Shown: positions 2,380-51,569 of the stretch, in pieces | How positions within the stretch are numbered: the first letter of the stretch is position 1 | How the letters are laid out: the number at the start of each line of letters is the position of its first letter | NCBI GenBank assembly: GCA_001938485.1 | Contig: MQRK01250014.1 | Location: 1-52,142 of the forward strand | DNA: 52,142 bases | Source of the DNA: Girardia tigrina | Taxonomy: Eukaryota | Reading direction: 5' to 3' | Program-made: the position numbers and the translations under genes | The notes under the pieces: model-generated | What the model was told of the DNA's origin: nothing | The model's database searches: none | What the model saw: the letters and a program-made list of their open reading frames with translations, nothing else

Positions 2380-2889
2380 ATATAATATAAACGGGTGTAG
2401 AAAGCTGAACAACAAATTTCGCCATATTTCCTACAAACGACATATGCGGATTTTATCCTCTCCATCCAAACTCTTCAAAATTTATTCTTCAAAATTTACA
2501 AATCGAATCTCCTTACAATATTTTGATATCAATTAACTGTGATTTTTGTCATATCTTGGATTATATCTGTCTTATTTGACTCAATCGTAGAGATTAATGC
2601 GGTATTTGATTATTGCGAATTGTTGATATTGTAATATGATTTGTTTGTTATTATCGTTATTATTTTATTTGTTTTATAGTTAAAACTAGGCTCATTTGTA
2701 GCATTACATTTAACCAGTTAGCTTAGTTTTACACTTAGAAACCGAAATTATAGGCAATTATAAATAGTTAAATATCTCTGTTTGTCGCTTGGTTAAGCGT
2801 ATGAGTAAATTAGTGCATAATCATCTTTTACAATTAATTATTTAATTTCGTCTTACAATTCTCTTGTCAAATCTTTAAATACGCAATGA

Positions 2890-3280
2890 TGCCGACACTA
2901 TAAAAAGCGAAAGTAAATCACTTTAGCAGAAAAATTCAATATTATCAAGGCAGTGAAACGTAAAGGCAAAAAGACTTCTGCTGCGAAGAAATTTTGAATT
3001 CCGCTAAATATCCATTCTTCAATCCTAAGTCAGAGAGATAACATCATAGAAGAAGGATTCAAAAGTAGCTCTTTATCTATTAGGATAAAAATTTGAGAAG
3101 TGAAGTATAACGATAATTAACAAGCGCTTTTGCAGTGGCTCACATAAATCATCCATCAATGACCGAGATAGTCAAATAGTTTTCTGAATATTATGAACAT
3201 CCATACTTCAAGGCCAACATATGACATCGATTCCACAAAGATCATCATGGAGTAACATTACGTGCTAATTACTGAAATCA
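2890..3280 (+). pseudogene. Tigger/pogo transposase N-terminal remnant (CENP-B/psq HTH)
   Basis: Manual translation gives KRK*ITLAEKFNIIKAVKRKGKKTSAAKKF*IP...SSILSQRDNI, and later HHGVTLR. Several stops are present. Confidence 0.6.
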
Positions 3281-3896
3281 TAATTTGGTTCTCTGGTCCC
3301 AAAGAGTTTTTATGATTTATAAATAGTGTTTCCAAATCAGTTTTTATACTTTATTTCAGTATCAAGTACTAACTTTCCAATAAGAAATGGACAATAGTAA
3401 TTCATATCCCCAAACAAATACTCACCTTTTTAATACAATTTCCGCTTACAAATAGATTAACACTAGAACACCCAAACTGTTATTTTTGACCACTAGACAA
3501 CTTAAAACCGCGCCCACTTTAACATAATGATTCTTATCAACTTGATATATTCAAGCTCCTATCTAGCTAAGTTTTCCAAATTAACAAAAATAAAGTCGAC
3601 AAGAATTATCGTTTCACAATACGTGCAGTGTAAAATAAATTTGCGACCACAAATGACCGTTTAACTGGATTAGTGTTCAGTAACTTCCTTGAATGTTATA
3701 GTCAGTTTTCATGTTATAAATATTGTAAACTAAACATAATTTTATTTATCATTTAATTATAAATAAATTAAAGGTTAATTACAAATTTTGAATTAGGAAT
3801 TTCTCCGAAATTTTTAATTTAATTGAAAAAACAAGGAGGCATAAAAAACCATTATTTTTTGTGACTTTCCATTAATTTTGTCTTCTGTAATTTCAG

Positions 3897-4100
3897 TTGA
3901 AAAATTGTATTGGACTGATTTGCAAGAAACAAAATACAAAGGATAATAAAGAAGCTTGTGAGAAACTCACAACCATGGTGAAAAGAGCTTGCAAGTACTA
4001 CCCGAAATATTCGCAAAAAGCCAAACGATTGGTGATAATATTCATAAAATTCATCGAAAATCGACTCGAGAAAATATCAATTCAAAATGCTCTTTTGCTG
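3897..4100 (+). CDS. Candidate internal exon of an unidentified host gene
   Basis: A 204-nt open frame bounded by a pyrimidine-rich tttcag acceptor and a gtttgt donor. The next acceptor (ttttaacag) is at 4154. No recognisable homology. Confidence 0.3.
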
Positions 4101-5423
4101 GTTTGTTAATGTTTATATTGATTGTTATGAGCTATTTAACTTCTATTTTAACAGCTGCGCGCCTGTGCCAAGCAGATTTATCAGTGACATAAAGAAATAA
4201 TAACAAGAAATAGTTTGTTATAAAAGTTATTTCAATAAAATCCCCAATTGAAAAGAGAACATCGTGTACCTTTATTCTTGTAGTAAAATAAACAGTTAAA
4301 AATAATAATCAACGATTCATATTAAACAGATGAGACGTCTTCAGAATGAATGTGATCAAAAATTGTATAAATAAAAATATAATTTGAGCACATTTTAATA
4401 GCAAAGCATTTTAAAAATGATTTTATTAAAACTGTTATCATTGAGCCTTCTTCATTTCATTTATGAAAAAGATAAGTTTACTCATTTCCAATGGAAGCAC
4501 AAATGCAATAGGAAAACATTTCAAGTCGGCAGTCATTAAATTCCTATTAAATATAACTCCTATTTTAACTTTATCGGACTTGGAAATTTTCTTCCACACA
4601 AAATATTGATATTTATTTGAATTATCAACAGTATTAAATGATTGTGAGGAGTTAGTGGAATTCAGAGACGTATTGGAGCCCATACCATTCAATAAATCAT
4701 TGTTCTTCCATGTTTTTATATTTTCCAAGATTCGATCCGATAGTATCGAAACAATTAAATTTGCCTATCAATAGAATTTAATTTAATTTTTTTCTAAAGA
4801 CAGAATAAATAAAAATATAAATAAAAAAATATTCATGTACCCTGAAATCTCGTTATAAGCCTTAGGCTTAGTAGAGAAAAAAGGGTTTTTTTTGGCTTGG
4901 TAGAGGCTTAGTATTGTTGATGTCTTGAATGTAAAATTATATATAAATATATGAAATATATATAAAATATATACCACACGGTTGTGAAGGTGCCGTACGG
5001 CAGTTGGTGATGGTTCTGTGGTGTTTTTGATGAATAATGAGAATAATATTTTTTGAGAATGTTTATTTTTTTTTGAAGCCTGAGACTCCTCTTTCGATCA
5101 TTCCTGGGAATGAGAGATTAGTACGTCTCATTCCCCGGAATGGTGTCGAATTTTGGGAGCCTGTAACGGTGCCTGAAAACTGTATAAGAAAATGAATTAT
5201 AAGATTTTAAAAAAATGGATGTTTCGGGATCCACTTTCGATCATCCCTGGGATTGATTTCGAATTTGGGATCCCAAGTTTTTTAGTAAAATATATATAAA
5301 TAAAAAAAATATATATTTAAAAAAAATTAATTAAAAAAATATATCAACTCTTACTTGGAGTTTGTTTTGCAAAAAAATGAACATTTTGAAGAAAATTCCC
5401 CTTTTTGTTGATAGCTATTAGCT

Positions 5424-24952: not shown

Positions 24953-25563
24953 GTACGTGAGCTCTTCTCTTGTATCTCTCTCTCTCGTCCAAGTGTCTCC
25001 GCGCTCCAATTATTATTAGCTGCACCGCATCCACCCTCTATACAATCAACATTGGCAATTATCAATTAATTCTTTGACTTCTTTTTTCAAAGTTGTACAA
25101 TGAAGAAATAAAGTTGAAGTTGCATTTTTAATAATCGTACTTTTGAATCGTTAGAATTGAAAAGGTTAAAAAGAATATTATTTGTATTTCTGCGAAAGCA
25201 TGCACCCATAAATTATTCCGTGTTCGAAATCGCTGCACTTTAATCAAAACTGCCAACATCCAAATGACAAATATCGCGATACAGTTCAAGAATCCAAATA
25301 ATTGCAATTTAAGCGGCTATTGTCCGATAAGATGGCCATATTTGACGGTGAATGTCATTCACATTGTCACGTGGGTCACGAAGAATATCCAGAACGTCAT
25401 GAAACATAATCCAAGATATAATAAGCGATAAATTTGATGTTATGTGCAGGTTACAGCTGAATTTGCAAAGAAAGTACGTATAAATCCAACCATCTGATTG
25501 TTTGATTCATTATTATTGAATGGATCAATAATAATTACTTTCATATATATATATATATATATA

Positions 25564-27272
25564 CAGTCAAAGTTTTATTTTACGAAATTTTAATTAACGA
25601 AAACGTCTATATTACGAAAAATATATTTTAAAGGTTCACGAAATTTTGTTTTAATATACAGTTTAACGAAATTTTTTTAACGAAAGACTAAAACCCATGA
25701 CTAGCCGAGTGAATAATCAAAAGCAAACAAGAATACATGTAAGTATTGATGAAAAAATTAAAATTCTAGATTACAAGTTACTGAATCCCGATGTTACACA
25801 ACTTGGATTGGCAAAAAAATTTAATATTTCGCTTGGAACAATCAATTCAATATTAAAAAAAAGAAAGATCTACGGAAAATATGTGAAAATAAAAGAAATG
25901 CAAAAAATATTACACAAACAAAAGAAATTAACCCAAAATTATTCAATGTATTATTCGAATGGTTTGATCGTAAAAGATTAATGAATCACATTTTGACAGA
26001 TGATTTATTGACCGAAAAAGCACTGTCAATCGCCAATGCTTATAATTTTCAATCATTTAAAGCATCAAATACATGGATGAGAAAATTTAAACAGCACTTT
26101 CTAATAATCAATAAAACCGTTTGTGGAGAAGCAGGATTGGTCAAAGTGGATGACTTAAAGAACAGTTGGAGTGATTTTGAACACATGAAAGCAGAATTTG
26201 AATCAAGGAACATATACAATTGTGACGAGACATCTTTGTTTTTCAAATACCCGACCAAAAAAACACTTGTTTTATCAAAAGACGACAGGGCATGCGGTAA
26301 ATTTGCTAAAGACCGCATAACTTTGCTTTTTTGTGCAAATTTATCTGGTCAAAAAGAAATACCATTACTAATTGGAAAGGCACAGAGACCACACGGGTTT
26401 AAACACTTGAATTTGAATGACCTTGGGTTGGATTATAAAAACAGCAAAAAGGCTTGGATGACAAGCACTATTTTCTTTAACTGGATGAATCAACTTAATG
26501 ACAGAATGCAAAAAAAAATAGGAAAATTTTATTAATACTGGAGAATGCACCAGTTCATAATATCAACAGTACTTTCTCAAATGTTCAACTATACTTTTTG
26601 CCACCAACAACCACCTCACAGATTCAGCCGTTAGATCAAGGTATAATTCGCTCTTTCAAGGCCAACTATCGTAAGTTTTTCATGCGAAATTTAACATTGA
26701 ATGATGAAAAAGATGGTACATGCTATGCAAATTTGCTTAAAAACACAAAACTTAAAGATATTTTATCGTTGATTATTGAAGCATGGAATTGTATGAGTGC
26801 CGAAACAATCACAAACTGTTTTAATAAATCATTTAACAATTGTTCAAAAAATACAGTTGACATAATAGATGATGATATTGAAGATACTCAAGAAAATCAA
26901 CTTGATGTTGACTTTCCAACTTGTAATGAATACATCGAACATGATGATTTAAACAGTGAAAAAATTTGCATAGATGAAATACAACCAACCGAAGAAAAAG
27001 TCTCAGAGGAAGAGGAAGAGAAAGAAAAACTAGTTAGTTATAATGAGGTGATCTAATATATTAATTTAGTGGAAGCTTATATACTGCAAAACAGTTGTAC
27101 CGATTTTATTAATCTTGAAAAAGTTAAAGATATTATGAAAACAAAAAAAAGAAAAGGTATGAAAATCACGGATTATTTTAATAAAAAAATTCAATAAATT
27201 TCTAAATTTTCGTTATTTTTTGTTACGAAAGACCAAAATCCGTGTAAATTGATTTTCGTTAAACCGAACTTT

Positions 27273-27277
<5 letters not shown>
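25564..27277 (+). mobile_element. Tigger (pogo-like) transposon, full length, with a frameshifted transposase (25697-27197)
   Basis: TIRs CAGTCAAAGTT...ACGAAA and TTTCGT...AACTTTGACT(A) within (TA)n. psq HTH, FKASNTW, IYNCDETSLF, KKAWMT and LPPTTTSQIQPLDQGIIRSFK motifs. Confidence 0.93.
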
Positions 27278-27335
<58 letters not shown>

Positions 27336-28072: not shown

Positions 28073-29043
28073 TTATTTAAACTTATTTCATAACTGTTAT
28101 TAAAATATATCAATTGTTATGACTGCAAGCATATTTTAAATAAGTATTTAATTTTTGAATATTTTACTTTACATTTTAATTTTTTAATTTAATTTTTTCT
28201 AAATTTTCAAGTTAAAAAAAATTAATAAACCATTTTGGTGAAATGCAAAATTTAACTAACCCCTCATAGAAATCAAAGTGGAAATTTTAAAAATTAAGTA
28301 GAATAATAATTATGCTTTGAATTTGAAAATATTCTTTATAAATTTATTTTCTTTAAAATATTATTATAGTAAAAAAATGAATGGAGTTAAACAGATAACA
28401 CAGTGTTTTAAAACATAATAATTTATTTGGAATTTAATAAAAATTTTAAAATCAATTAAGGATATGACTAAAAAATTACATATTTTAAACATAAAAAATT
28501 GAATATTAAATATAAAGTATTTTTTAAAATTTCAAAAATACTAAAAATAAATTACAACAGGTTTTTTTTATTAAAAAATTCAAAAAATTAAAAAAGCAGA
28601 AAATAATTTTTCATTTGAAAAACAAAATTTTAAAAACATTATAAAAGGTTAAAATAAACAACAAATTTAAAAAATAAATACTTCCATTAAAAACTAAATA
28701 AACGTAAATTAATAATTTTCATAAATGTTTTAAAAGTAAATAGTATTTAATTTGAAATTTAAAAATTATTTGAAAATAGAGATCGGCGGATTAATGATTA
28801 ATTAAGCAAAATGTCGAAAAATTTGCTTGAAAATTGTTTAAAAAAAATTTCAAAAATACTAAAAATTTAAAAAATTTCACCAAAATGGTTTATTATTTTT
28901 TTAACTTGAAAATTTAGAAAAAAATAAATTGAAAAATTAAAATGTAAAGTAAAATATTCAAAAATTAAATACTTATTTAAAATATGCTTGCAGTCATAAC
29001 AATTGATATATTTTAATAACAGTTATGAAATAAGTTTAAATAA
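28073..29043. repeat. Near-perfect ~170-bp inverted repeat (28073-28244 and 28874-29043)
   Basis: For example, CAATTGTTATGACTGCAAGCATATTTT pairs with AAAATATGCTTGCAGTCATAACAATTG. Confidence 0.9.
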
Positions 29044-31411: not shown

Positions 31412-32010
31412 TTATTTATACTCTTGCGAAAAAAAATTTGCGAATCTTACTGGAATTGTTTTTTGATGTACATTTTCAACTTCAGTACATAAAGAAACAT
31501 TATATTTTTCCATAAATGAAACATTTGGTTGAAATAAAAGATCATCATATGTGTCAATTGTTACTTCTGCACAATAAAATACTTCTGCTCGATAAGGAAT
31601 ATTTAAATTTTCATTTATATGTACATCGGTAACTTCGTGTATAATTTCTCCATTCGGAACTGAAATTAGATTTCCACTATTCAAATCAATTGAAATCCCT
31701 TTTAACTGTTGGAGTAGATCCATTCCAATTAAAAGTTTTTCAGGATATTGACCACTCACTAACACATTAGCTTCTATAATTCTATTTCCAATTGCAATTT
31801 GAACTTTAACATATCCTTCAATTACAAGATAGTCTCCAGACACTGATTGTAATTCTTCAAAAATTGGCAAAATATTTAATTTTTCAGACGATAATAACAT
31901 TGCTTGATTTATTATTGTGACAGAAGATCCAGTGTCAATTAATGCTAACGTTTTTCTATTATTAAATAATACCGCTAAAGTCGGTCTCCTTCCTGACTTT
32001 GCTTTGATCA
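31412..32010 (-). CDS. Retropepsin aspartic protease plus Gypsy post-PR spacer, in the same ORF (31412-33154) as the Env C-terminal half
   Basis: RPTLAVLFNNRKTLALIDTGSSVTII...LLIGMDLLQQL, with the catalytic DTG at 31936-31928. Confidence 0.92.
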
Positions 32011-32450
32011 TAGAAACATAGTTGCTGGGTACTCCCCATTGATTTCTTTTTTCTATATTTTCTTCACCCTCTTTAAAGGTTCCCAATTCTGAACTGATTG
32101 GTTTCATTTCTTCTAATTTGAGAAATGGATAAGAAGACAAAGAATGAATACTTGGAGGTGGGGTAAAGAATCTTCCCGCTTGTGTTTCACATTCGTTTAA
32201 TGTTTGCATCTGATTTTCATAGTATACACATTTCTTGTTCGTTGGTTGTGCTGTCATTTGACTATCAGGTTCATTATTTTTATTGCCTTTTTTATCATCA
32301 CCAGAGTTACTCGGATCACTATAAGAATCTTCTGAACTTGTCTTAAATTGTATACTTTTACTACTTCGCTTAGAGTCATTTTGACTTTTGTGTTTCTTGT
32401 ACTGTTTCACAGTCGATTTTAATGTATTAATATCTTTGTTACGATGATGA

Positions 32451-34291
32451 ATTATTAGAAATTTAGCTATAGTTGGTATACATCCTACAATCAACTGCCA
32501 TGAAATTCCAACCATTGTATATAATCTATATGTTGATAATATCTGAGTTAGAACCACTTTAATTATGATATATATCACATAAACACCAATAAGACCTGCA
32601 CAAGCTTGACAAAAGAATACAAATCTTCCCCAAATTTTTTTCATAGTATTCATGGTTGCTCTCTTATAATGATCAATACTCAAAAAATTGTCATAATTAA
32701 CTTGATCAACACCTCCTGGTAATACAGTGTCTACAATTTCAGTTACAACTCTTTCTCGTTTTGACGGAAATAATAAATTTCTTCGAGCATCCTCTACCTC
32801 TTCGGTTGAGTATATTCCATTTGAAGATATTTGGTTTAAAGACGTAAAATTAATTGAATACTCTAATTTAGTGAGTTCTAATTTTTCCACATTCTTCACT
32901 TCTTTATTATTTGGTAATGATATCCATGTATCTGGATTTAACCGATATAATGGAGCTACAATTTCATTACAATTTAAGACTTTAAGTTTCGTACCATTTT
33001 CGACTAAAACTCGAGTTATAGGTTCAACATATCTCAATTCTCCTTGAAACATTACAGGAAGCTCATTTGTGCATACATTGTTTTTAATCAATTGAACTGC
33101 AACTTCCTTACATTTAAGTAAACATAGATTCTCCCAATACTCTTCAAAATACACCGTTTTCTGAAATTAACATTGGAGCGACTAAATTTGGATTTGTGAA
33201 GATTAATCCTAAACGATTTCTGAAAATTTCTCTGTTTAGTTTACAATCATTTAATATAACTTCACTATACATAATTTCAATTGTAAATTGATTAAAATGA
33301 AAAGCAAAATCGATTTTGTTATTTAAATATTGAGATATTTTTATATCTGCATTTTTCACTATTCCAGCATCAGGGATTTTCTCTTTTGATACATATAAAC
33401 TTTTATAATTTGTCGTATAAATCATTTTTCCACAAAGAGTTTGTTGATCCTTTTTAATAAATTGCATTCCATCTGAAGTAAGAGAGGACATTAAAACTGT
33501 CGCCAATTTCCTTTCCAATACAGGATATGCTTTTCTTGTTTGGGCCCTTTTAGGCTTTAATATATCAGGTCTTTCACGAATTTACATACCTTGGGCTTCA
33601 GTAAATTCTACTGATTTCAAAAATGCTAAATTACAATCTTTATAATTGACTTTATATAATAATACTGATTCTCCAGTCTGGCAACTAGTTTGCTGAAAGT
33701 TGCAAAAAGGATGTGACTGCAATTTTCCTGTAGCTTCATCAAATATACCATCAAAAGTTCTCAATTCTGTCTGATACTCTTCTGAAATCATTATCTTTTG
33801 TATTATCTTTCCACCCAATTTTACAGCTTCTCCTTCGCAATCAGCATTGGCTTCCATTGTACCTTTTCAGATAACAGATTCTCTCATTATTGATCCAACT
33901 TTTGCAGCTAATTTTAATGTTTCATCAATTTTTAATTCTTTAGTCTGAAAGGCTGCCTCACAATTTTCGGGTAATATTTCTACTGGCCTTGGTATGGCAT
34001 CAATCTTAATCAAAGAAGTGTGACTCCATCTTCCACAATGAAATACATAAGTTGCTTTTTTCACAATACATTCTCTCACTTTTGCTCTACGAAATCCTGA
34101 TTCTTGATACAAGTGATACAATACATTAACCTTTTCTTTAATATGTAACGGGTAAGCTTCCGCACACTCAGCAACATCTAATAACGAATACGTTTTTCCA
34201 CTTCAGTTTGTGAACAATCATAAGCTACAAATGCTTGAGCTTGGTTCATTCCTAATATAATAAATAAAATTAAAGTGAACCACCACAATTT
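32451..34291 (-). pseudogene. Env: chuvirus-type (class III, gB-like) fusion glycoprotein with signal peptide and C-terminal TM; several frameshifts and stops
   Basis: Signal peptide LWWFTLILFIILGMNQAQA|FVAYDC. Motifs ECIVKK..FHCGRWSHTS, LCGKMIYTTNY, YLNNKID..MYSEVILNDCKL, KCKEVAV..CTNELPV..PITRVLVENGT..C and GIYS..R..LLFP. Hydrophobic segment at 32623-32451. Confidence 0.85.
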
Positions 34292-35073
34292 AGAACTATT
34301 ATTAATATTAAATTCATGTTTAGTTTTATCATTATTAATACTATCAATGTCTTTGATTGCTTTTTTCAAAAATGATTTATCAATTTTTGAAGTGTAAGTA
34401 TCTTGAACTGTCGCAACATTTTCCTGTTTAATATTATTCTCGACATCTTCAACATCTATATTCATGCACTGTATTGAAGGTTCAATTTTAATATCTTTAT
34501 CCACTGAAAGAGGTAAATCTAGACTCAAATTACTCGTAATGTAAATATCATTAATTTCTTTATTTGTGGCATTAATTTCATCAATAAAAAAATTTTTGAA
34601 TCTGGTTCATTTCACCATCTAAAATTACATAATCATAAATATAATTCTCGTCTTCTAATTATTGATTTCTATAAAACAATTGAACTGATCCGGATATCTT
34701 AATTAAGCTTTCAATCTTTTCTCTCAACTTTTTTACTTTAGCACACCAATTTTCAGCTAAGTAAACTACATCTTTTCCTAGAATATTCAAAGCCAAATAC
34801 ATTTTTGGTATATTCAAATTTTTTTTTATATAATACATGGCAAACTTTTTTAATAATTCTTTTATTTTTACTCCAAATTTTGTTACTTCATGAATTCGTG
34901 TCACCAATATTGGCTTTAAAAAACTTACTAATCTTTCTGAGACTGTAAAGGTATCAATTTCTTTTAATAAATCAATAATTTTTTGTTCATTGTAGAATTC
35001 ATTCTTAAATTCATTAATAAGACTCAATGTAATTTCTTTTATACGTGTCTCTGTTTCCAATTCATATTTTAAT

Positions 35074-35298
35074 TCAAGAAACTTGTATTTTAACATCAAC
35101 CATATTTTTCTGAGAAGGTAAAATGCCATAAGCAATTAAATATTCTCCATTTTCTAAAATCTGATTATTAAAAGTTAACATAATATTCTTACTTTCCATT
35201 TTAGATATAACTTCCTCCATTAAATCTTTAACCTTACTCTGCAACGATAACTCAAGTAAAATAATTTCTTTTCCACAACTACTAACAACAATAGGCAA
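35074..35298 (-). pseudogene. Ubiquitin-like (beta-grasp) domain within the retroelement polyprotein
   Basis: IILLELSLQSKVKDLMEEVISK...MLTFNNQILENGEYLIAYGI aligns by eye with ubiquitin [22 protein letters not shown]...[20 protein letters not shown]. No C-terminal GG. Confidence 0.6.
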
Positions 35299-35302
35299 CT
35301 TT

Positions 35303-36908
35303 TCAAAAACTAGACTGTCTTAATTCTTTTCCAAAAATCCGCATCATTTCCTTAGCTTTTACATTGGAATTTTCACTATTATATAAATGATCTGACAATA
35401 ATTTTACTAAACTTTCTTTTTTCTCGATATTTAAACTAATTTTGGAGACTTTTCCAATATTTTTAAATAATTTGTTCACAGTTTCTTTACTCAATTCCAC
35501 TTGATTTGATACTCTATTAATGAGAATTCTTATTTTATCTACTTCTAATTCATAAACCTTTGTACATACAGGTTTATCATCAATCATAAATTCAGTTGCG
35601 TTTTTACTTGTTTCATGATGTCTTTTCCTTGATTCATCTTTACTAGCTGATTTTGTTAACATCGATGATTTACTTTTAGTATCGCCCATTCGAACAGATA
35701 ATCTGTCAAATTGTGTTCTCAACTCATCAAATTCAGTTTTCCTTGTATTGTTAGCACTATCATCATCTGATGATAGATAATTAACATCCGCCGTTTGTCT
35801 TGGAATTTTATATGTTTTTTTCAAAATTGAAGGTGAATATTGCTTTGCAGTTGATCTACAAGTTCTGGCTAGGTGTCCAAACTTTTTACATTTTTCGCAT
35901 TGAATTTGACAATTTATATTAACTCTATCGCGTTGTGGCGATGGTGTTAAAGATCTGGTATTAAATCTACAAACATTTGCTGTATGACCTCTTTTCCCAC
36001 AATTATAACATGTAATAGTATTTGCTGTATTGCTTGGGAAGGTTTGTTCTTTAAACCAACACTGATTACTTGCATGGCCTAGTTTATTGCAATTAAAACA
36101 TCTGGGGATCTTTTTGTCAACATTTTTTCGCACAAAATTTGGACTAACATTACGAAAATTTGATCTGGGGATATTGAACTTCTATTACCACTATTAAAGT
36201 TATTGTTTTGATTAGTTTGAGGTCTGTATTTTCGATTGTTGTTTATTTGTTAAGGTCTTTTTATTTTTGGAGATGAATAACTATCGCTTTCTCTTTCAGA
36301 ATCGCTTTGTCTTAGGATCGATTTTTGTAGTCGTTCGAAAGATTTCATCTCAGTTGCAAAAACTGAACGAGTTGGAACTGCATTTGAATTCATTTCGATT
36401 TTCATTGCTTTTTTCACTAACTCATCAAATTTGGCATATTCAACTAAACTCAATGTAGCTTTAATATGATTCTGAACCCCAGACCAAAATTGATCCTCCA
36501 CCAGTTTTGATGTCTGCTCTGTCCATTTTTTTGCGATCACCAAAAGCTTTTTCTGCAAGCAAATTCACTTACGGATTCATTGGCATTTTGTATTCTCGTA
36601 TAGAACTTTTTGCGTAAAATTTGTCCAATGTCTCCACTGATTAATTTTTCTACAAGAGCATCCTTTATTTTTGACCAGTCAACAACTGTCCTTTTATCAA
36701 TCTGAGTATAAGCTTCTCTGGCTGCCCCTTTTAGGTACAAAGGCAATCTTTGAATCATAGTTTTATCTGACCAACCGTACGCCGAAGCATACATATAATA
36801 ATCTGTCATAAAATCAACGAATTCAACAGGATCTCCTCCATATTGATTTACTGGTAATCTTTGAAAATTTGCAATATCATTATTATTTTCACGATTCTCA
36901 TCTGCTAT
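35303..36908 (-). pseudogene. Ty3/Gypsy Gag (capsid plus three CCHC zinc knuckles), frameshifted
   Basis: YGWSDKTMIQRLPLYLKGAAREAY and RIQNANESVSEF, then CFNCNKLGHASNQC, CYNCGKRGHTANVC and CEKCKKFGHLARTC. Confidence 0.9.
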
Positions 36909-38789
36909 TTAACTTTTTTATTACGTAAATTATACTTCGACAGTTTTATTTTCTTTCAAATATTAATAAATTCAAAATCTTCAAATGTTTTCAATTTAAA
37001 ACCAGCGTCGGCTCACCAAATATTATTTTGGGTATTCGAAAATATTCTTTTGTTAACTACTTTAAGCAAGCTTTCAAATATAATTATCTGACTCCTTTTC
37101 AAATGGTTCTTCCTAACTTTGTAATGAATATAGTAATTTGATGAACCCTCTCTTGAAGGTTTCAATTTCTTTTGAATGAATCTCGTCGGAGATTATTTTT
37201 CAAATATTAGCAATAGTAATAAGTCAAAGGAATTCTGTTTAAAAAAAACTTTATTCAATTGAATTACAAAAATTCTTCCAATACAACGTATAAATAACAG
37301 TGGAGGATTCCAAAATATTTCGAACAATTTTCTTCTAAAAATTTATGACTTCTACTTAATTATTAGTTTTACAAAATTTATGAGTTTATTGTTTCAGTTT
37401 GGGGTATTTATACCCATTTTGATACAAAAAATTAAATATTAAATAAAAATTACTTATATTAGTTTTTTAAGAAAATAAAATTTAATTTTTTAAAAAAACA
37501 TTAATTTAAAAAAAAAATAAAAATTTATTTAAATTTTCAAAATAAATTGTAATCTTGCAATTATAATTTGTTTAACTGGGCTTAAATGCCCATTTATTTA
37601 AATCTCCTTTTAAATTGTGTTTCTAATTCGATATTTGAAGAGAGACTAATCCCAGCCTAATTGCTGTTTGATTAGTCCTCCTTTAAATAAAAATAGTGGG
37701 CATAACTGCTCATTTCATTTTTCAACAATCCTGGGTAAGGATTTATTTATTTTTTTAATTTTATTATTTTTTTATAATATATAANNNNNNNNNNNNNNNN
37801 NNNNNNNNNNNNNNNNNNNNNNNNNNNNNNNNNNNNNNNNNNNNNNNNNNNNNNNNNNNNNNNNNNNNNNNNNNNNNNNNNNNNNNNNNNNNNNNNNNNN
37901 NNNNNNNNNNNNNNNNNNNNNNNNNNNNNNNNNNNNNNNNNNNNNNNNNNNNNNNNNNNNNNNNNNNNNNNNNNNNNNNNNNNNNNNNNNTTTCAAAGCC
38001 TTCAATGGTTTTTTCCAACCAACACAGGAGTGCCCCCTTAATGAACGGGCCCCTGCTAGGGAGGAAAAACTCGTTGACAAAGTGCTAAATAATAGTAATT
38101 AATTTTTAAAAAAAATAAAAATATAATAATAATGACAAAATAATAATAATAATAGTATTAATTAATTTATAATATTCAAAAAAGTCAAAATAATAACAAT
38201 AAATCTAATAAAAATATAGCAATAATTATAAAATAAATAATAATAATAATAATAATAATAACTAAATAGTTATAATTTTAATATAATAAATAATAGTGCT
38301 AAAATAATATTATTTATATTAATAATATTACTTATACAAATACAAATTATTCCTATTAACTACATTGAGTCCCTGAGCACTGAGCTCAAACAAAAGGGAA
38401 GTTACAAAGGGATTTATCACCACATTTTATTTATATTTTTTTGTTATTTATATATATATATATATATTTAATTTAATTTTATCTTTTAGGAGGGTAAGAA
38501 TTATATTTTTAAATTTTAATTAATAATATATATATTTTTTTCAGATCCTTAACAGTTGTGGAAAAGTTCTTTTCCGTTTCTTTCAACTCAGACATGAAAT
38601 TGATATTTTCCTTACCGAGAAAGATCACTCTGAACCACTTTTGTCAAATCGTGAATGGCTCTAGAAGTTGGCAATTTTTGCAGATTTGGTAAATCATATG
38701 AACAATTTAAATTCAAAATTACAAAGTGAAAATAATTTAATTTGCGATTTTTACACAAATATAAAAGCATTCAGAGCAAAGTTGCTAGA

Positions 38790-40310: not shown

Positions 40311-41107
40311 ATATATATTGATTAATGCCGTCATCAATCTGGGTCAAACATACACTCATTCATTTCACCATACACACTATTTCGGTTGTGACCTATTACA
40401 CAACAATACAAAGATCACACCTCAAACATTCCATACATAAATTACACAACATTCAATTATTAGTTTCGATAATAATTCTCCTCACATATATAATTATTAA
40501 ATCAAGCTGAGTTATGGCTTTTCAATTTCGCAAAAAGTAAGATGGAACCAATTGCACCAGTAAAACGTAAAAAATTATGGAGGAAGAATTCGTTAATAAA
40601 AGCAATTGATGATGTTTTGTGTTTCAATGTAATTTGAGTGTTGATTTGTGATTATGTTAGATGCTTGATATATATTATTATCTGAACTAATTTGTGTTAA
40701 ATACTCAAATTTATGTTTAATATATTATGCTTGTTTATTTTTTTGGTAAACAAAAATTATTAGTACTAACACCAAAGATTGCGGTAGTAAATACCCTTGT
40801 AAAGCTTCACCACACTAGCTTTCTATAGATCGATGTTTTATGTAATATTCGTATTTCTTTCGTGCTTCGTTTTTCTGGGCAATTTCCATGGCAATTGAAA
40901 ATAATTTACCTTCGTATTAAACGTTTTAAATGCATATATGTTATTAAAGTTTATTCAGATTGAGTGAAAGATAATCCTAATTGTATGTTGTAAATATTGT
41001 GTGAGTTTCTTCAAAACGCAAGCTAATTTCTTCGTATAATCAAGTTAGAAATAGTTTAAACGTTTATTACGCTTGGAGGGGATTCCGTGCCTCCACGTTG
41101 TTTTGGA

Positions 41108-41488
41108 CAGATAACGGTAGTAATCGCCTTTCATTTTTAAGAAGAACACTTTAGCTTCACCGCCATTTGTAGCCACCAACAAGAACTCATCGAGTAAGGC
41201 TATTATATCAGCGCAAACTTCATTCAATTCTCTTTCAATTTGACTTCGGTAGGCTTTAATCAGTGGAAGTCGAGAAGGATCTTTTTGTTCGATGCTACTC
41301 ATCATCCTCCACCACGCTCTCCGATTTCCGATTACGTTTTTATATGCTACGGATAACAAGTCACGCTCATCCATGTTTAATTCGCCAGTCATTTTAACGA
41401 CATCTCTCATCGCATTAACCACTCCATCATATTTCTCAGCCCGTTCAGCTAATTTAGCTCTATACACTTTCACCTCTCTATCAGCCAT
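41108..41488 (-). pseudogene. 14-3-3 protein, intronless N-terminal half, truncated after YYRYL
   Basis: AKLAERAEKYD, ERDLLSVAYKNVIGNRRAWWRMMSSIEQK and KVFFLKMKGDYYRYL. Similarity then stops and the ORF ends at 41045. Confidence 0.92.
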
Positions 41489-42714
41489 TTTATCAATTTA
41501 TTCTTTTTGTTCGTTCGATTAAATTATTTCTTTTGTATTTAAAAAATTGGATTGAAAACAATTGAGATTGACACAAAGACCTTTTATTATTTTTTTTTAA
41601 ATTGACAAACTTTTTTAAAATTGTGAGAACAATTCACACAAAAAAAACTCCCCCCACACACACACAACAAACAGACATTCACCAATCATTATTTACATAT
41701 CAAACATGCATACACACTGCATTCATACATAAAAAAGAAATTACCAGTGATTGATATGGAAAACAATGAGGCTCACAACCCGCTCGCCATTCAAAATATC
41801 GAGACAATCAATCACTCGTTTCGAATTTTGATTGGCGATTACATAATTTAATTGCTTGTCACTGCTGGATGATAATTAATTTTCCAATTTCTTTGTTAAA
41901 ACTTTTTAATTAGTTATGAATATATGAAACCTTTTAACGAATTTTTCTATTTAAATTCAGTGCCATGATTATGATTNNNNNNNNNNNNNNNNNNNNNNNN
42001 NNNNNNNNNNNNNNNNNNNNNNNNNNNNNNNNNNNNNNNNNNNNNNNNNNNNNNNNNNNNNNNNNNNNNNNNNNNNNNNNNNNNNNNNNNNNNNNNNNNN
42101 NNNNNNNNNNNNATTTATTATATGTTTTATTTATAAATTTTTGAAACTGGCAAAAAAATGTTCGGTCAAATTGACAATTCTCCGTTCCAACGCTAAACGA
42201 AGATCGTTTAAACGTTTAGAAAATTTTAAAACGTGCCCACGTCTAGATACACCATTCTCACTAGCTAGACCTCCTGCTAATCGTCCAATATTTTGAAACA
42301 ATAGTTATTAAATGGAATTTTATGTTATTGTTTTGAATATATTTTCAAAATTTTCACTATCATGTAATTACAATTATAATTTTATATGTTCATATTATTA
42401 ATAAACTTATCATTTATCTGTGAATTCACTGATTATGTGTTTTTAATATCATAATTTATTTATGTGACCAGCGGGACTATCTTCCGATGCACCATCCGGC
42501 CCGCGTTGTCAAAAGTTTGAAGACCCCTGATCTATATTATGAAGTTTCCAATTTGTTTTTCTGTTGTGATGACGATGAATAAACTGGAATTATGAACTGT
42601 AGTTTTATCATGTCACATTGAGTTGATTGTGAACGCAAACTTTAAAGACAGTGGTTATTTTACTTCTCTAGTTGTAATTTGTTATTTTCAGAATGGATTT
42701 TTCAGAATGGATCT

Positions 42715-44121
42715 TCAAGTTCGAGTTTGGGGCGCGTTTGCAGAAGCTGTCTGTTCAAGAATAAGTCCTCGCCCCATTTTCCAAATGATGTTTTGATAAA
42801 GTGTTCGAGGTCCCAACTCTTCCTCCATCTCCAAATCCTTCAGCCGTACGATAGTGCTTTCAAGTAGGTACAACAACCGGTCTAGTTCCTGCACATTCCT
42901 GTTATTCAGCGGTCTGAAATACCGGATTTCCTCATGAATGGATGCATAGATCCGGCCTGGACCTCCATATCTGGCATCGAGCTTCCACAGGCTTTCTTTG
43001 TAAGCTGCTGCACTGAATCCAAGACATTCTATTAGGTTCAGCGCCTCTCCTTTCAAATATTTCCCCAGGTACAGCAACTTCTCAAGATCCGATGCGGAGG
43101 TTTCATCCACGCATAATTTAAAGGCCGCTTTCCAAGCTTCATACTCCTTGTTGGTTCCTCCAAATACGGGTAATTGGATGCGCTCCATTCTGTCCAAGCT
43201 CCTCCCTTTTCTCGAAGAGCTGACCGAATCTTCTGAGCTATTCGATGATGCATCCTCCGAATCTACTTTCTCTGACTTCTGCAGAGAATGTATCTTTTTT
43301 GATTCCCGTCCTGAAGTTAATTTTTCTTTCACTTGCATTCGCTTTTCATATAAAACCGTCAACGCCTCCTCTCTCTGGTCCAGTTTCTCCATCTCTTCCT
43401 GCAATTTGTCCGCATTCTCCAGATCCCCGGCCTGATCGTAATGCTCCATTAGTACCTTGAAACTTGCTAATAAATCCTCGTTTTTATCTTGATATTCCTG
43501 ATGTAAACCCCACCATTGTACATTAGGGATGTCAGAATCCAATAGCCGTTTATAAGCGAAGGTTAGTGGCCGTTTGTCATCTCTTTTTTGTAGGACCAAC
43601 TTCCGGAAGTTCATTGAACTGAGTTGCCCTGATTGTTCCAGAGTGATCTGTGGTTCCTCTTCTGGTAGATCCATTCCACCCAGCAATTTTTCCACACATT
43701 CAATTTTAGCGTATTTGGAGAGACCGCACTCAACTATTGACTGTTTATTCTCCAGAAACTTCCCCTGGAATATCAATTGTTGAAAATGAATGGGTACTCT
43801 CTCTTTTTCCCATATTCTTTCTTTAATATTTGTTATCGTACTGACAGCCCCATTAATGCTTATAATCCGTCCATCCATCAATCGAATGAAGACGGGCATG
43901 AGATTTTTCGCATCAGAATTAACTTTTGCTTCAAAGAGGTCGTAATTTGTTTTATTATCTCTGATTGAGGTTAATTCGTTTGATGAATCGAATTCACTGA
44001 ACTCGATCGATCTCTCACTTGTATTTTCTTTCTCTCTTCCGTCCTCGAACTCCTCGTGTCTGTCGTGTATTGTGCGTGTTACATGTCCTCTCGCGTTCGG
44101 TCTGAGTACCTCAGGCACCAT
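42715..44121 (-). mobile_element. BEL/Pao Gag ORF (468 aa, 3'-truncated) with an N-terminal ubiquitin-like domain
   Basis: DUF1759-type core MERIQLPVFGGTNKEYEAWKAAF..EKLLYLGKYLKGEALNLI..YKESLWKLDARYG. PBS-like TGGTGCC at ~44120. Ubl at 43899-43675. Confidence 0.88.
43675..43899 (-). CDS. Ubiquitin-like domain (75 aa) ending in di-glycine, fused in frame to BEL Gag
   Basis: MPVFIRLMDGRIISINGAVSTITNIKERIWEKERVPIHFQQLIFQGKFLENKQSIVECGLSKYAKIECVEKLLGG|M. About one third identical to ubiquitin by manual alignment. Confidence 0.9.
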
Positions 44122-44552
44122 ATTATCTTTCTCGTGAGTACTTCTCTCGCGTGCTCACTTTCTGGAAACAAAGCGAAAATATTTCTCACTCGCGTAGAGC
44201 GATGCAACCCACACGCCAACTACCAATACACACGCATTCTCAACGCGACACACACGTGGTCTGGCTCGAGGACACTCTCCACAATCTGTCTCAGATAACT
44301 GTGCTCGCTCTCGCACTCATTCTTCCGATCGATCAATATCTTTCTATCAAGGAACGCCGCGATCGTCTCTTTCTCTCCAGCTCTTTCTTTCAACGACGAT
44401 CGAGACAGATTACTTCCATCAATTTCGGTGTCCTTATCACCATAGATATAAATCAATCGACACATGAGATTTGCTTGATCGATCAAACATATTAGTGGAA
44501 TTTTATTATTATTAATTTTATAAATTTTAATGATTGTTCTATGGAACTCTAT

Positions 44553-45128
44553 CGGTGAAAGAATCAATCTCTTAAGATTGCCGAGTCTCTGACAAGCCTT
44601 TATGGCATCACTGATTAATTTGATTCTGTTTGCGTGTAGCTCGAGTGACGCCAAAGGGTGCCCGCGAGTATTGGCGAGTTCACTAAATCCCGTTAGATCA
44701 CTAATCGCATTATACGATGCATTTAATTTAACCAACTGTCGCAATTGAGATAATCCTTCCAATTTTTTTATTCGATTCGCCGATAGATTTAACGTTCTCA
44801 AATGAATCAGTGAATCGAGACCGCTAATTTTCGTGATCGCATTCGACGACAAATCCAGATGCTTCAAGTTACTCAGATTATCCAATCCTCTCATAACAAT
44901 GATTGAATTATAGGGTAAATTCAATGTCGAAATGTTCGGTCTCAATCGAACATTCAAGACGTCTTTTATACCGCAATCGATAAAATTCTCTTCGATAACG
45001 TTTTCCGATTCGAATTGCCCCTAAGAAAGCATTTCATTCTTACTGATGGATACTTCGTTTGAACAATCGACTGAAGTAAAATTCGAAGAATTATGACACT
45101 GTTCTGCTTTCATTGAGTATAGTTCCAT
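44553..45128 (-). pseudogene. LRRCC1: LRRCC1/VFL1-like centriolar LRR protein, N-terminal part only, intronless, with one in-frame stop (45023-45021)
   Basis: FIDCGIKDV..TLNLPYNSI..LKHLDLSSNAITKISGL..LRTLNLSANRIKKLEGL..LNASYNAISDLTG..LELHANRI..LKRLIL follows the recalled LRRCC1 N-terminal LRR layout. The SDS22-type LRR call is secure; orthology is inferred. Confidence 0.7.
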
Positions 45129-46752: not shown

Positions 46753-47221
46753 CGTGAGGAATATTTTAGATTGTTTGAATGTGTAAATGTGTTGATGCTG
46801 TATGTTGATTTAAATATGTTGAATTTAGAATGGTGATTCTCCAACCCAGATAGAAATTGATATTTTTTTATTAAATTTAAAGTAATTGACTATTCGAACA
46901 TAATTAAAATAATCATTTTATAAGTTCATATCTTTAATTTCAGAATTAAAATTAAGTTTAATAATTTTAATAATTATTTTAATAATTATTTTGGGATTTA
47001 TTGAACAATGGTAAAAATTAATATTTTTAATTAATAATTTTTAGAGGTTAAATATTTTAAAAAATAACGTAGAAAAATTGTTCAAATAATCATGATTAAA
47101 AAAAGAAATAAGAAAAACAATTAGAAAGATGACAAACGATGACAGACCTTCTGAGAGTTTTAATGATTCTAAATGTAATTTCAATAAAGATTCAAACGAG
47201 ACTTGTTTAAATGTTCTTAAT

Positions 47222-48260
47222 ATGGCGACACACGACCACGTAACACCAATTATTAAGGGACCGGAGACATTCGATGGGTCAGAAGCATAATTAGAAGAAT
47301 TCATAATAAGCTTTGAGAGATATTCAAAGATTTTGGGATTTAAGATAGAAAGAAAAGCAATATTAGTTACAGCATTCATGACCCCAGAAGCGATAAACAA
47401 ATATGAGAAAACACAAGAAGGCAGTTTGGAAACAAGAATGATAAGTGCATTCTCGAAAGAGAAAAATATTTTAGAGATAATGAAAGAGCTTGTAGAGATT
47501 AGAATCGGGGATAAAAATCCATCAGAAGTATTTAAAAAGATTGATGATCTAGTGGAAAAACTAGTTGAGAAAAAACTAGGAAAAAAGGAACTTTCAGATC
47601 TAGCGTACGACAATGTCGTCGAAGATAGAGAAGTAAGAAGAGAAATGAATCTGAGAAATGCTACAAAAGTAGAAGATATAAAAAAATATCCAGGAGAAAA
47701 TTTACGAATTTGAGCTGAAAGACAGGAATATAAGAGTGGACGCATACACAACAAAGGAAAATAAAGAATGCAAGAAAGTAAAATATAGAACAAGAAGACC
47801 GAGACCAAGATACGAAGAGAGAAAGAACGAAGAACCAAGAAGAAATTTTAATGCGAGAAGGATCATATGTCGGGCCAGCTATGAACAAGGACATGTGAGA
47901 TGGGAATGCCCAAATGTTAAATGCAACCATTGTAATAAGAATCTAAGAACACAATGTTATGGGAATCCAAGCAGATTTAGAGAACACGAACAATCTGGAA
48001 GAGAAGATACAAGGATTAGAAGAAATGAACGAAAAGAATACACAAACACACGGTACAGAGGTCGGATTGGATATTAGAATAGAAGAGACCAAGTAGCAGA
48101 ATTAGAAGACTCCGATGACGAGTGGAATAGAATGTCGGAAAGACCGAATAAAAAAGAAAGTCTAACAAGAAGAGAAAATATTACAAACAAGAAAAATTTC
48201 AGAGACGAACAGGGGAATGATTATGCACGGTCACAGGGAGAAGTGATCAGTGCACTTCAC
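47222..48260 (+). pseudogene. Gypsy Gag with degenerate zinc knuckles
   Basis: IKGPETFDGSE, then CRASYEQGHVRWECPNVKCNHCNK. Stops and frameshifts are present. Confidence 0.75.
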
Positions 48261-48300
48261 TAAGAAACGAATTTATGTGTATGTTTGACTATATGAATGA

Positions 48301-51300
48301 TTGTTTGTATGGGATGCTGTTGAAAATATTCCTCGGGAATTGTGTATATTAGATGGTGAAAACGAAATAGAAAATGAGAAATGTGACAGTTTGATCACAG
48401 AAAAAGATGAAGTGAGAAGCACAGAAATAATGAAAATATCAAAATTTAAAATAGAATACGAAGAACTGAAAGGGAGACCTAGTATAGAATTTCAAATAAA
48501 GAATAAAAAAGTACGATGTCTATTGGATACGGGAGCACGAGTCAGTGTAATTAAAATAAACTTACTCAATAATATGGAAAATATCAAAATAAAAGAGACA
48601 AAAAGACGTAAACACTGTGCTAACGATACGGAACTAGTAAATTAAGGAATAGTACAACTAAAGATTAAGATTGAAAGAATACAGAAAATAGTGGACTTTT
48701 TTGTAGTAAAAGATTTAAACCCGAAATGATTGCAGGAATGGATTTTTTAAATAAATTCAGCATAAAACTAAAGAAAGAAACAGGATACAACGAAGGAGTG
48801 ATGGTAATACGCGATACTTTAACTGATGGAGACAGACTTAAAAGAATAAGGAAAATATACGCAGATAAGATAGATGAACCATTAATGAAATTACTAATAG
48901 AATATAAAACGATATTTATGGCGGACAAATGGGATATCGGGAAGACCACATTAACTAAGCATAACATTAAAATGCAAGGAGAACCAATATTGGTAAAACC
49001 ATACCGACAGCCAAAACACTTTGAGGAAAAACTAGACGATATTATCAAGAATTACGAGGAAAATGATATCATTGAAAAATGTAGTTTGCCGTGGAACTTT
49101 CCGCTAAAATGTATTGTATGGAAAAAAGACAAACAGGATATCCGAGTATGTGTTGATTTTCGACAATTAAATAAAGTCACAATCAAACCAACATTTACAA
49201 TGCCAAATGTAGAAGAAATGCTAAATACATTAAATGGAGCGAAATACTTCAGCACGATCGACTTGGGGAGTGCATATCATCAAGTCGAATTGGAGAACAA
49301 TTCAAAATTAAAAACTGCATTTTCGACAAAGAACGACCAATATTGTTTTAAAAGAATGAAATTCGGAATTGCATCTGCTCCAGTGACATTTCAAGAACTA
49401 ATGACAAGAGTGTTAGGAGAATTAAACTGTAAAGAAGGAATTGTATACCTGGACGATATTCTAATCTTCGCAAAAGACAAAGAAGAACATTTCAGACGAG
49501 TCGAATACATTTTTCAAAAGATTAAAGAATCGGGCCTTCGGATAAACCCTGAAAAGTGTCAATTCATGGTAGAAAAGACAAAAGTTTTAGGATATGTCGT
49601 GAGCAAAGATGGTATAGAGACGGATAAAACGAAAATTGAAGCAATCGACAAATTTCAAAATCCTTCATGCATTAAACATTTAAGAAGATTCTTGGGGCTA
49701 ACGAACTATTATAGAAAATTTTTGAAGGATTATGCAAAATATTTAAAAATACTGAAAGGGTTATGTGGAAAAAATAAAGATAAAAAATTGACATGGACAA
49801 AGGAATGTGACGAAGCATTTCAGACATTAAAAGATAAAATGACAAAAACACCGATACTTGCATATCCAGATTTCGAAAAGGAGTTTATACTGGATATAGC
49901 CTCCAGTTTTGATACAATCGGGGCAGTACTGGCACAGAAGGATGCATACGGAAGGGAAAGAGCAATTGTATATGGATCCCACAGGATGAACAAATACGAA
50001 CTGAGATACTGTATTACAAGAAAAGAATTATTGGCAAACTGTTACTTTACCCAACACTTCAAGCACTTCTTTTACGGAAAGAAGTTTTTGCTTAGAACGG
50101 ACCATAAGGCCATCACATTCATGATGACAACGAAGAACCCAATAACTCCACAATTCCAAACTTGGGTAAACTTCCTTAGTGGACTAGACATGAGGATGGA
50201 ATACCGCAAGGGCGAAAAACACACTAATGCAGACGCAATTTTGAGAAATACATGTGAACTATGTGTACAATATCAGACAATGCACGATGACGCTAAAAAA
50301 GGAAAAGTTAAAACTAGAATCCTTTCCTTAACTGAAGATTCAGAAGAGTTCATTTGGCAGACGAATGATAAAGAAATAGAACAGATTAAAGAAAATATTA
50401 GAATGTGAAAGACAAATGAATGGCTTCTAAAAAACAATATAGTGACGACAAGAAATAACAAATATTGGATCCCTTTGAAGAAGAGAACAGATTTTATAGA
50501 AGATATACATAAAATGTTACGCTACGCAGGAAGTAAGAAAGTTTACAATTACATAAAAAATGACTTCAATATGTATGAAATGAGACAACAAATAAAGAAC
50601 ATCGTACAAAGTTGCGCAAACTGCCAGAAAAGGAAGACGCTGACGGCATAAACGAAAGAGAAACACATTAAACAATCTGTCGACGAACCATTTCAAAAAA
50701 TTTACATGGACTTTTGCGGACCATTCAGAAGGACTATGAATGGATACCAATACATTTTAGCAATAATCGATCAATTTAGTAGGTAAATCAGTTTGACCGC
50801 AGTGGCACACCAAGACGAGAAGACTACACGGAAGGTACTATTGGAAAAATGGATTTGGAAATTCGGACTACCAAAGAAGATACACGTTGATAGAGGGAAA
50901 ACTTTTGAATCAGCACTCTTTAAAGAAACGACGAAAAGATTTAAGACGGAGATAGTCTATTCAAGTCCTTATCACAACAACACTAACGAAATCACAGAAA
51001 GACAATTCAGAACAATAAGAGACGCCATAAATATACGATTAAATGATGAAATGCATAGAGATTGGGTAGAAATGTTGGCGGAAATAGAATTCATGTTAAA
51101 CGGTGCAATCCAAGCAACAAATGGAATATCTCCCTCCGAGATAATCTTCGGAAGAAAACTAAGACATTGGTGGAAAACTACAACAGAAGGAAAAATTCGA
51201 GAAAAAGCAAATAAAAAAATAATTGAAACAAAACGAATATTTCAGGTCGGAGATAAAGTCTTGATAAAGAAAGTTCACCCATCAAAAGATGATGACCGTT

Positions 51301-51431
51301 ATATGGGATCAGCTAAAATTATAAAGCAAAGACACGAAAGAAGTTATGAGATACAACTAGAGGACGGCAGGATCTTGATCAGAAATGTAGAATGGCTAAA
51401 GCCATTTAAACCGAAATATTTTATATTTTAA
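48301..51431 (+). pseudogene. Gypsy Pol: protease, RT-RNase H (ORF 48726-50408) and integrase
   Basis: CLLDTGARVSVI, RVCVDFRQLN, FSTIDLGSAYHQ, VYLDDILIF, FLGLTNYYRKF, RTDHKA, CANCQK, HVDRGKTFES and ERQFRTI. Confidence 0.95.
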
Positions 51432-51569
51432 ATTGTTTGAATGTGTAAATGTGTGGATGCTGTATGTTGATTTAAGTATGTTGAATTTAGAATGGTGATT
51501 CTACAACCCAGATGGAAATTGGTATTTTTTATTAAATTTAAAGTGATTGACTAAAATAAAATAAAACCA

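Follow-up and report, generated by a model that had tools for sequence, protein, structure and literature searches.

Retroelement envelopes have, to our knowledge, been described as single proteins. The non-canonical endogenous retroviruses of nematodes, the subject of Sacco et al. 2022, reportedly have a continuous gag-env-pro-pol frame, in a metavirus whose Env precedes pol. Chary and Hayashi (eLife 2026, PMC13524379) cite Sacco 2022 for the Env placed before pol in a nematode metavirus, and report GAG-ENV-POL elements with a gB-type Env in nematodes, bryozoans and flatworms, which do not form one clade. Arkhipova and Yushenova (2019, PMC6431247) describe Burro (GYPSM1), a giant planarian gypsy element of >30 kb and 4,873 aa, in which gag and pol are separated by an in-frame env related to mononegavirus fusion glycoproteins. 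The layout is thus already known, and an earlier sequence-only reading of our locus was wrong in stating that no described element has it. Here we analyze a 52,142-nucleotide stretch of Girardia tigrina DNA (assembly GCA_001938485.1, contig MQRK01250014.1, positions 1 to 52,142; the window), which holds one copy of a Ty3/gypsy family of this type. Its Gag, two ubiquitin-like (Ubl) domains, chuvirus/gB-type glycoprotein, Pol and a membrane protein with three fibronectin type III (FN3) domains are probably made as one polyprotein of ~3,300 residues threaded through the endoplasmic reticulum (ER), with a topology predicted from sequence and structural models.

Layout of the window copy

The element in the window is a decayed, 3′-truncated copy of this large envelope-bearing family. 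Its parts follow one another on the minus strand, from the 5′ long terminal repeat (LTR) and the primer-binding site (PBS) to the retropepsin:

37027..38554, minus strand: 5′ LTR, ~1.5 kb; homology to other copies begins at 38554 and solo/3′ LTRs stop at ~37027; its 3′ end has decayed in the window
37001..37018, minus strand: PBS for tRNA-Trp, 8 nt behind the LTR, decayed in this copy
36253..36908, minus strand: Gag capsid region in two frames; PF03732 Retrotrans_gag, E 1.2e-4, at 36540-36908
35840..36121, minus strand: nucleocapsid with three CCHC knuckles; PF00098 zf-CCHC in three stretches, E 5.4e-11 (Pfam placement 35306-36181)
35077..35319, minus strand: predicted Ubl domain 1, without C-terminal Gly-Gly
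34805..35070, minus strand: predicted four-helix domain of ~85 aa, family unassigned (AlphaFold model of copy L035)
34575..34805, minus strand: predicted Ubl domain 2, broken by a stop in this copy
34232..34288, minus strand: internal signal peptide, predicted from a basic n-region, a hydrophobic core and small residues at -3/-1
32633..34231, minus strand: chuvirus/gB-type glycoprotein ectodomain by profile (PF24664), interrupted by two stops and by two changes of frame
32450..32632, minus strand: hydrophobic anchor, one strong segment and a weaker second one
31991..32449, minus strand: Lys/Ser-rich tail, the Env-to-protease joint, in the same open reading frame (ORF) as the protease in 28/34 copies
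31697..31990, minus strand: retropepsin; PF13975 gag-asp_proteas, E 6.5e-7; PF00077, E 4.9e-5
31433..31696, minus strand: post-protease segment, dUTPase-like by position only, as described for Burro; no Pfam match

About 10 stops or frameshifts interrupt this copy, which ends at 31433, where homology to the other copies stops; contigs of an independent sequencing run continue beyond that point with different sequence. The reverse transcriptase (RT), RNase H, integrase and FN3 membrane protein lie outside it and are known from other copies. The parts named in the sequence-only reading were confirmed at their places by Pfam matches and by our reading of the window, and its PBS-like motif is a real, decayed tRNA-Trp PBS. 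The uninterrupted ORF of 580 codons that it saw running from the C-half of the ectodomain through the transmembrane (TM) region to the protease is part of a stop-to-stop frame of 584 aa (33166-31412).

One frame from Gag to Pol in the family

The glycoprotein-to-protease ORF has at least 88 matches in the same genome, a lower bound from the 75 scored of 7,564 candidates; many are full-length, at 51-92% identity, and most are colinear over glycoprotein, TM and protease. The family order is Gag, Ubl, signal peptide, chuvirus/gB-type glycoprotein, TM, protease, RT, RNase H, integrase, and it was never inverted among the 50 loci mapped, of which 40 were fetched stretches and 10 came from the first 20. 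Most junctions lie within a single ORF: the two capsid pieces in 7/10 other copies that cover their junction, post-nucleocapsid/Ubl in 10/10, Ubl/helical in 14/15, spacer/signal in 25/28, signal/glycoprotein in 30/33, TM/tail in 28/32, tail/protease in 28/34 and post-protease/RT in 12/23. Because the mapped loci came from env-side queries, the searches were repeated from the protease and Gag ends. Among the best 29 protease matches, the Env tail lies upstream in 28 (with the TM in 26) and Gag is joined in none; the remaining one is a stretch of 332 bases with no match. Of the best 29 nucleocapsid matches, 17 extend as far as the Ubl block, and in none does a protease follow within 1.5 kb. One copy has lost the N-half of the glycoprotein by internal deletion and kept the TM.

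Six overlapping natural ORFs span the element, including frames that run from Gag to the start of the glycoprotein (775 aa), from the signal peptide to the protease (833 aa), from the glycoprotein to RT (913 aa), from RT to the integrase (557 aa) and from RNase H to the last TM (965 aa). We counted 359 stop events and 161 frameshifts, some of them twice since the regions overlap. No position was common to more than four copies at a median coverage of 16-37, so the breaks are ascribed to decay; a programmed stop or frameshift between blocks was considered and rejected, no recurrent position having been found. The ratio of nonsynonymous to synonymous substitution rates (dN/dS) is low in all domains, linkers included, testifying to purifying selection on every part: 0.04-0.14 between subfamilies for the glycoprotein, 0.10-0.18 for the Ubl block, 0.23-0.41 for the tail and 0.34-0.55 for the spacer. 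By these junction counts, scattered breaks and dN/dS values, the ancestor with one Gag-Env-Pol frame postulated by the sequence-only reading is well supported. In trees of the RT and of the glycoprotein (the latter by a quick method only), the copies of this genome form one clade each, with 6/7 subfamily groups common to both, and the window copy groups with L002, L004 and L005.

A predicted second membrane protein after the integrase

The frame continues beyond the integrase. A basic stretch and a signal-peptide-like segment come first; ~285 β-rich residues follow, which bear N-glycosylation sequons, and then a stalk rich in Ser/Thr, a TM helix and, last, a short tail. This protein has 109 matches in the genome. 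The way from the integrase end to the second signal is open in 16/28 copies (a stop in four, N in five, split in three). Both this protein and the glycoprotein are present in L021, in L031, and in L143 with L142, and the start of the protein was also found in L014, of the window copy's subfamily. The Pfam fn3 profile matches weakly, in 8/14 members (best E 2.4e-6). The model of the ectodomain (pLDDT 80) has fibronectin FN10-12 as its top Foldseek match (E 3.8e-11); the whole-chain TM-score is 0.35, with differing domain angles. The ectodomain is accordingly predicted to fold as three tandem FN3 domains. The second signal evolves at a dN/dS of 0.12-0.26 and the FN3 region at 0.23-0.44.

The terms fibronectin and FN3 occur neither in the main text of PMC13524379 nor in the text of PMC6431247, and no published description of the FN3 tail was found in a literature search of article texts, which took in neither figures nor Repbase reports, nor the articles Sacco 2022 and Grohme 2018, any of which may bear on this point. 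The second membrane protein, with the doubly anchored Pol that it would create, is the part of the element for which we found no published description.

Glycoprotein, signal peptide and anchor

The Monjiviricetes_fusion profile (PF24664) matches the window copy in three colinear pieces (profile positions 36-125, 247-369 and 377-641 of 653; E 4.6e-11, 1.1e-10 and 3.9e-47) and copy L026 with E 3e-79. The glycoprotein is, by these matches, of chuvirus/gB type, which bears out the earlier assignment. The first signal peptide has a canonical pattern and a hydrophobic core (KD15 1.8-2.7 in 11 copies), and it is the most conserved part tested (dN/dS 0.03-0.08); stand-alone glycoproteins of ~650 aa show the same signal-peptide pattern. 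Furin cleavage of the inter-domain loop was rejected, as an R-x-K/R-R site is present in 0/27 copies.

In 25 copies, the anchor comprises a first segment with a hydrophobicity (KD19) of 2.0-2.4 and a second one of 1.4-2.1, followed in most by 8-12 basic residues. Since the second segment is also present in the stand-alone glycoproteins, and since the basic cluster comes after it, the predicted topology favours an anchor that passes the membrane once.

The Gag block

The sequence-only reading had a Ubl domain and a "helical spacer" between Gag and env. The helical part stands, as an ~85-aa domain; a second Ubl domain behind it had been missed. In the predicted folds, this stretch is Ubl-helical domain-Ubl, with two Ubl domains and not one. 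The ubiquitin profile reaches E 0.008 in the window copy. In copy L035, Ubl 1 matches PF11976 (E 4.2e-9) and its predicted model retrieves the ubiquitin fold with Z ~12, while Ubl 2 matches PF00240 over the stretch 196-237, with a ubiquitin-fold Z of 12.9 (rmsd 1.4, 76 aligned). A role of the Ubl domains as host-deubiquitinase cleavage signals was rejected because they lack Gly-Gly ends.

The helical domain is modelled with a pLDDT of 85-93 over its helices (AlphaFold, copy L035). Its best PDB match is the integrase-binding domain of LEDGF, at a weak E of 0.14; this identity is unsupported, no LEDGF Pfam match being found, and LEDGF-like exons of the host genome do not match the helical-domain profile. 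An Atlas search gave low-recognition HEAT-like matches only, the lists of the fold searches were filled by the adjoining Ubl domains, and a profile search found no Bcl-2 match in eight members at E up to 1.

Element ends and class

The LTRs of other copies have TG...CA ends, and the solo LTRs with both ends visible are flanked by 4-bp target duplications in 2/2 cases (L136, L023). The solo LTR of L023 (bases ~2370-4420) lies, with its 4-bp duplication, inside the post-protease region of another copy. The PBS of copy L109 shows 18 nt of complementarity to the 3′ end, CCA included, of the tRNA-Trp(CCA) encoded by genes of the same genome. A purine tract precedes the 3′ LTR in 3/4 loci examined, and tract and 3′ LTR stand ~2 kb behind the ORF end. 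In L031, ~9.8 kb, or ~3,300 codons, lie between the Gag start and the last TM with the end of the ORF, and the whole element measures about 15 kb.

In other copies, Pol has the order protease (PR)-RT-RNase H (RH)-integrase (IN); the window copy stops after PR. Compared with solved structures, the RT is closest to that of Ty3 (E 2.9e-44), followed by caulimovirus-type (5e-28) and foamy (2e-12) enzymes. With this Pol order and RT type, and with its LTRs, PBS, purine tract and target duplications, the family is Ty3/gypsy (Metaviridae). Neither RT nor Gag agrees with an assignment to BEL/Pao.

Comparison with described elements and public relatives

The family shares the Ty3/gypsy Pol and the GAG-ENV-POL order with the Platyhelminthes errantiviruses of PMC13524379, as well as an Env of HSV/gB type that lies between a signal peptide and a TM and is recognized here by the PF24664 profile. 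Over the first 85 residues of glycoprotein domain I, 56/85 are identical between the window copy and Smed_errantivirus_1 in a by-eye alignment, comparable to the 63.7% that separates Smed_errantivirus_1 and Smed_errantivirus_2 (PMC13524379). The elements of that study are intact by its inclusion rule, whereas every copy fetched here is broken or partial, a difference of decay and not of lineage. The terms polyprotein and ubiquitin are likewise absent from its main text.

With Burro, the family has in common the three CCHC knuckles, an Ubi2/SUMO-like PF11976 domain, the segment intervening between PR and RT and the in-frame env (PMC6431247). It differs in size (~15 kb and ~3,300 codons), in the two Ubl domains around a helical domain and in the FN3 protein past the integrase, which the text on Burro does not mention; unlike in Burro, no MATH, BIR or ankyrin Pfam match was found in the family pieces scanned (PMC6431247). 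Burro also has a BCL-2-like domain before env, for which the pieces scanned here gave no Pfam match. The nematode non-canonical endogenous retroviruses belong to another host phylum, and Anakin (Dezordi et al., PMC10084718) has a glycoprotein of the same family but a BEL/Pao backbone, in contrast to the Ty3-type RT found here.

A weak search for longer homologues with the window ORF gave no match; an HMMER search found relatives. The long ones in public databases are single polyproteins with the same Gag-Env-Pol order, and the best full-length protein is 46% identical over the C-half of the glycoprotein, less than the 56/85 shared with Smed_errantivirus_1; this ranking by itself points to a likely planarian-type host. 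A signal-like hydrophobic segment follows the integrase in 5/6 relatives that reach that far (P0002, P0003, P0084, P0151 and P0026), with a terminal TM after it in P0002, P0003, P0084 and P0151; P0098 ends at the integrase. Four of their post-integrase ectodomains are weakly alike among themselves (E 9e-5 to 0.02); homology to the family FN3 ectodomain was not supported by profile comparison.

Some relatives have features of their own. Two to six retropepsin motifs per chain are present in P0002, P0004, P0005, P0008, P0013, P0084 and P0151, and such tandem proteases could pair inside one membrane-tethered chain. P0151 (4,844 aa) has ankyrin and C2H2 matches and one extra signal-like segment, and P0010 has a weak Bcl-2 match before the glycoprotein, as in Burro. 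P0003 (HBK71150.1), a Gag-Env-Pol polyprotein of 2,627 aa, appears in NCBI under the label of a hypothetical protein from Flavobacteriaceae and is likely animal DNA in a bacterial bin.

Other elements in the window

At 42718-45020 on the minus strand, a BEL/Pao-type Gag (DUF1759, E 1.5e-13) and a ubiquitin domain (E 2.2e-11) share one ORF of 479 aa, with a leucine-rich-repeat ORF directly upstream; judged by these matches, this is a second LTR lineage with a Ubl domain in Gag. Another gypsy element (46761-51542, plus strand; RT, RNase H, integrase) lies between 120-nt direct repeats of 91% identity, and its RT is 34% identical to that of the Gag-Env-Pol family. The window also carries a Tc5/pogo-type transposon with terminal inverted repeats (25543-27298), a non-coding element with 148-nt inverted repeats (28073-29043) and a 14-3-3 fragment (41048-41497). 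The segment 30300-31430, at the truncation point of our element, is one that we take, by eye, to be a hAT-type fragment.

A probable membrane-threaded polyprotein and its alternatives

In the predicted path of the chain, Gag lies in the cytosol, the glycoprotein in the lumen, Pol in the cytosol, the FN3 domains in the lumen and the tail again in the cytosol. The internal signal peptide would send the glycoprotein to the lumen, and the glycoprotein anchor would bring the chain back, so that PR-RT-RH-IN forms a cytosolic loop; past the integrase, the second signal peptide would open a type I membrane protein made up of three FN3 domains, a stalk and a TM helix. The fusogen would have in it a likely partner for attachment or adhesion. 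The sequence-only reading had signal peptidase release Gag. This is not supported: signal peptidase cuts on the luminal side, and for that reason Gag would stay on the signal anchor, the peptide stub keeping the Gag block on the membrane. That reading also tethered Pol to the Env tail, which would hold for that end; because a second signal-peptide-like segment comes after the integrase, the Env tail would not be the sole tether and Pol would be held at both ends. In the simplest reading, equal amounts of Gag, Env and Pol would come together at the same membrane, the Gag-Pol link of other retroelements being lost during synthesis of the chain. Particles would bud from that membrane, and capsid and enzymes would be released by the protease that the element encodes. 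Pol may enter particles via Env, as the sequence-only reading proposed; packaging through RNA, as in foamy viruses, is an alternative.

Several observations weigh against a single threaded chain. In every copy fetched, the frame is interrupted somewhere between Gag and the end, and the longest ORF free of N measures 965 aa; two junctions score low in the one-ORF count, capsid/nucleocapsid (4/12) and RT/RNase H (4/18), both long spans with scattered breaks. The family's second signal peptide, which contains Pro, is a weak one, the stalk and second TM are the least constrained parts (dN/dS 0.34-0.83), and the post-integrase ectodomains of the public relatives gave no match to the family FN3 profile (probability <=1.3%). 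The second segment of the glycoprotein anchor, if it crosses the membrane, would leave Pol in the lumen.

A continuous genomic frame might be expressed from several RNAs, through splicing or internal starts that give Gag or Gag-Pol without env, with the membrane proteins produced separately as they are in ordinary errantiviruses. A single polyprotein would give equal Gag and Pol, whereas an excess of Gag is usual among LTR elements, and the Env of classical errantiviruses is the product of a spliced RNA. We nevertheless hold this unlikely: the tail and spacer linkers are translated under selection, the signal peptide is in frame with the Gag block in 25/28 copies, and, as a weak test, contigs of two RNA-type runs show no recurrent joint across env. 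Family pieces are present in runs X6 and X8, which cannot show transcription, and among the listed contigs none bridges the whole TM-protease junction. It is also improbable that a single polyprotein takes another topology or is incompletely translocated, with the first signal often skipped, or the anchor crossing thrice or dipping, so that some product is a cytosolic Gag-Env-Pol acting as a normal Gag-Pol. The ~60-residue hydrophobic region with two segments after the ectodomain would suit it, as would the gB-type ectodomains that lie between two TM domains in some elements (PMC13524379); the canonical, strongly conserved first signal, the basic cluster after the second segment and the stand-alone glycoproteins that share both segments argue the other way. 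That a one-off nested insertion or a misassembly placed env between gag and pol can be put aside almost entirely, despite the fragmented state of the assembly, in 255,254 contigs, and the heavy damage to the window copy: the Env tail precedes 28/29 of the best protease matches, 0/29 Gag matches have a protease within 1.5 kb, and the same order recurs in public proteins of other sources and in print. Neither of these, nor a Gag joined directly to PR (0/29 and 0/29 joints from the two ends), all three named beforehand in the sequence-only reading as outcomes that would contradict it, appeared.

We tentatively raise a further possibility, somewhat less likely than its opposite: a two-protein envelope from one chain, in which Pol would be preceded by a class III fusogen and followed by a captured FN3 protein for attachment, its enzymes forming a cytosolic loop that is pinned to the membrane at both ends and packaged without a Gag-Pol fusion. 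The texts of PMC13524379 and PMC6431247 consulted here are silent on how Gag, Env and Pol meet once the signal peptide splits Gag from Pol; the anatomy described here predicts two signal cuts, a cytosolic Pol loop and equal amounts of all parts. The two-protein envelope, if real, would be a third way of building a reverse-transcribing particle, nearer to a flavivirus polyprotein and the fusogen-plus-binder of herpesviruses than to retroviruses, and it may extend to the whole flatworm-type GAG-ENV-POL group. The conserved FN3 surface protein would then be a candidate factor by which this abundant family binds cells and selects tissues.

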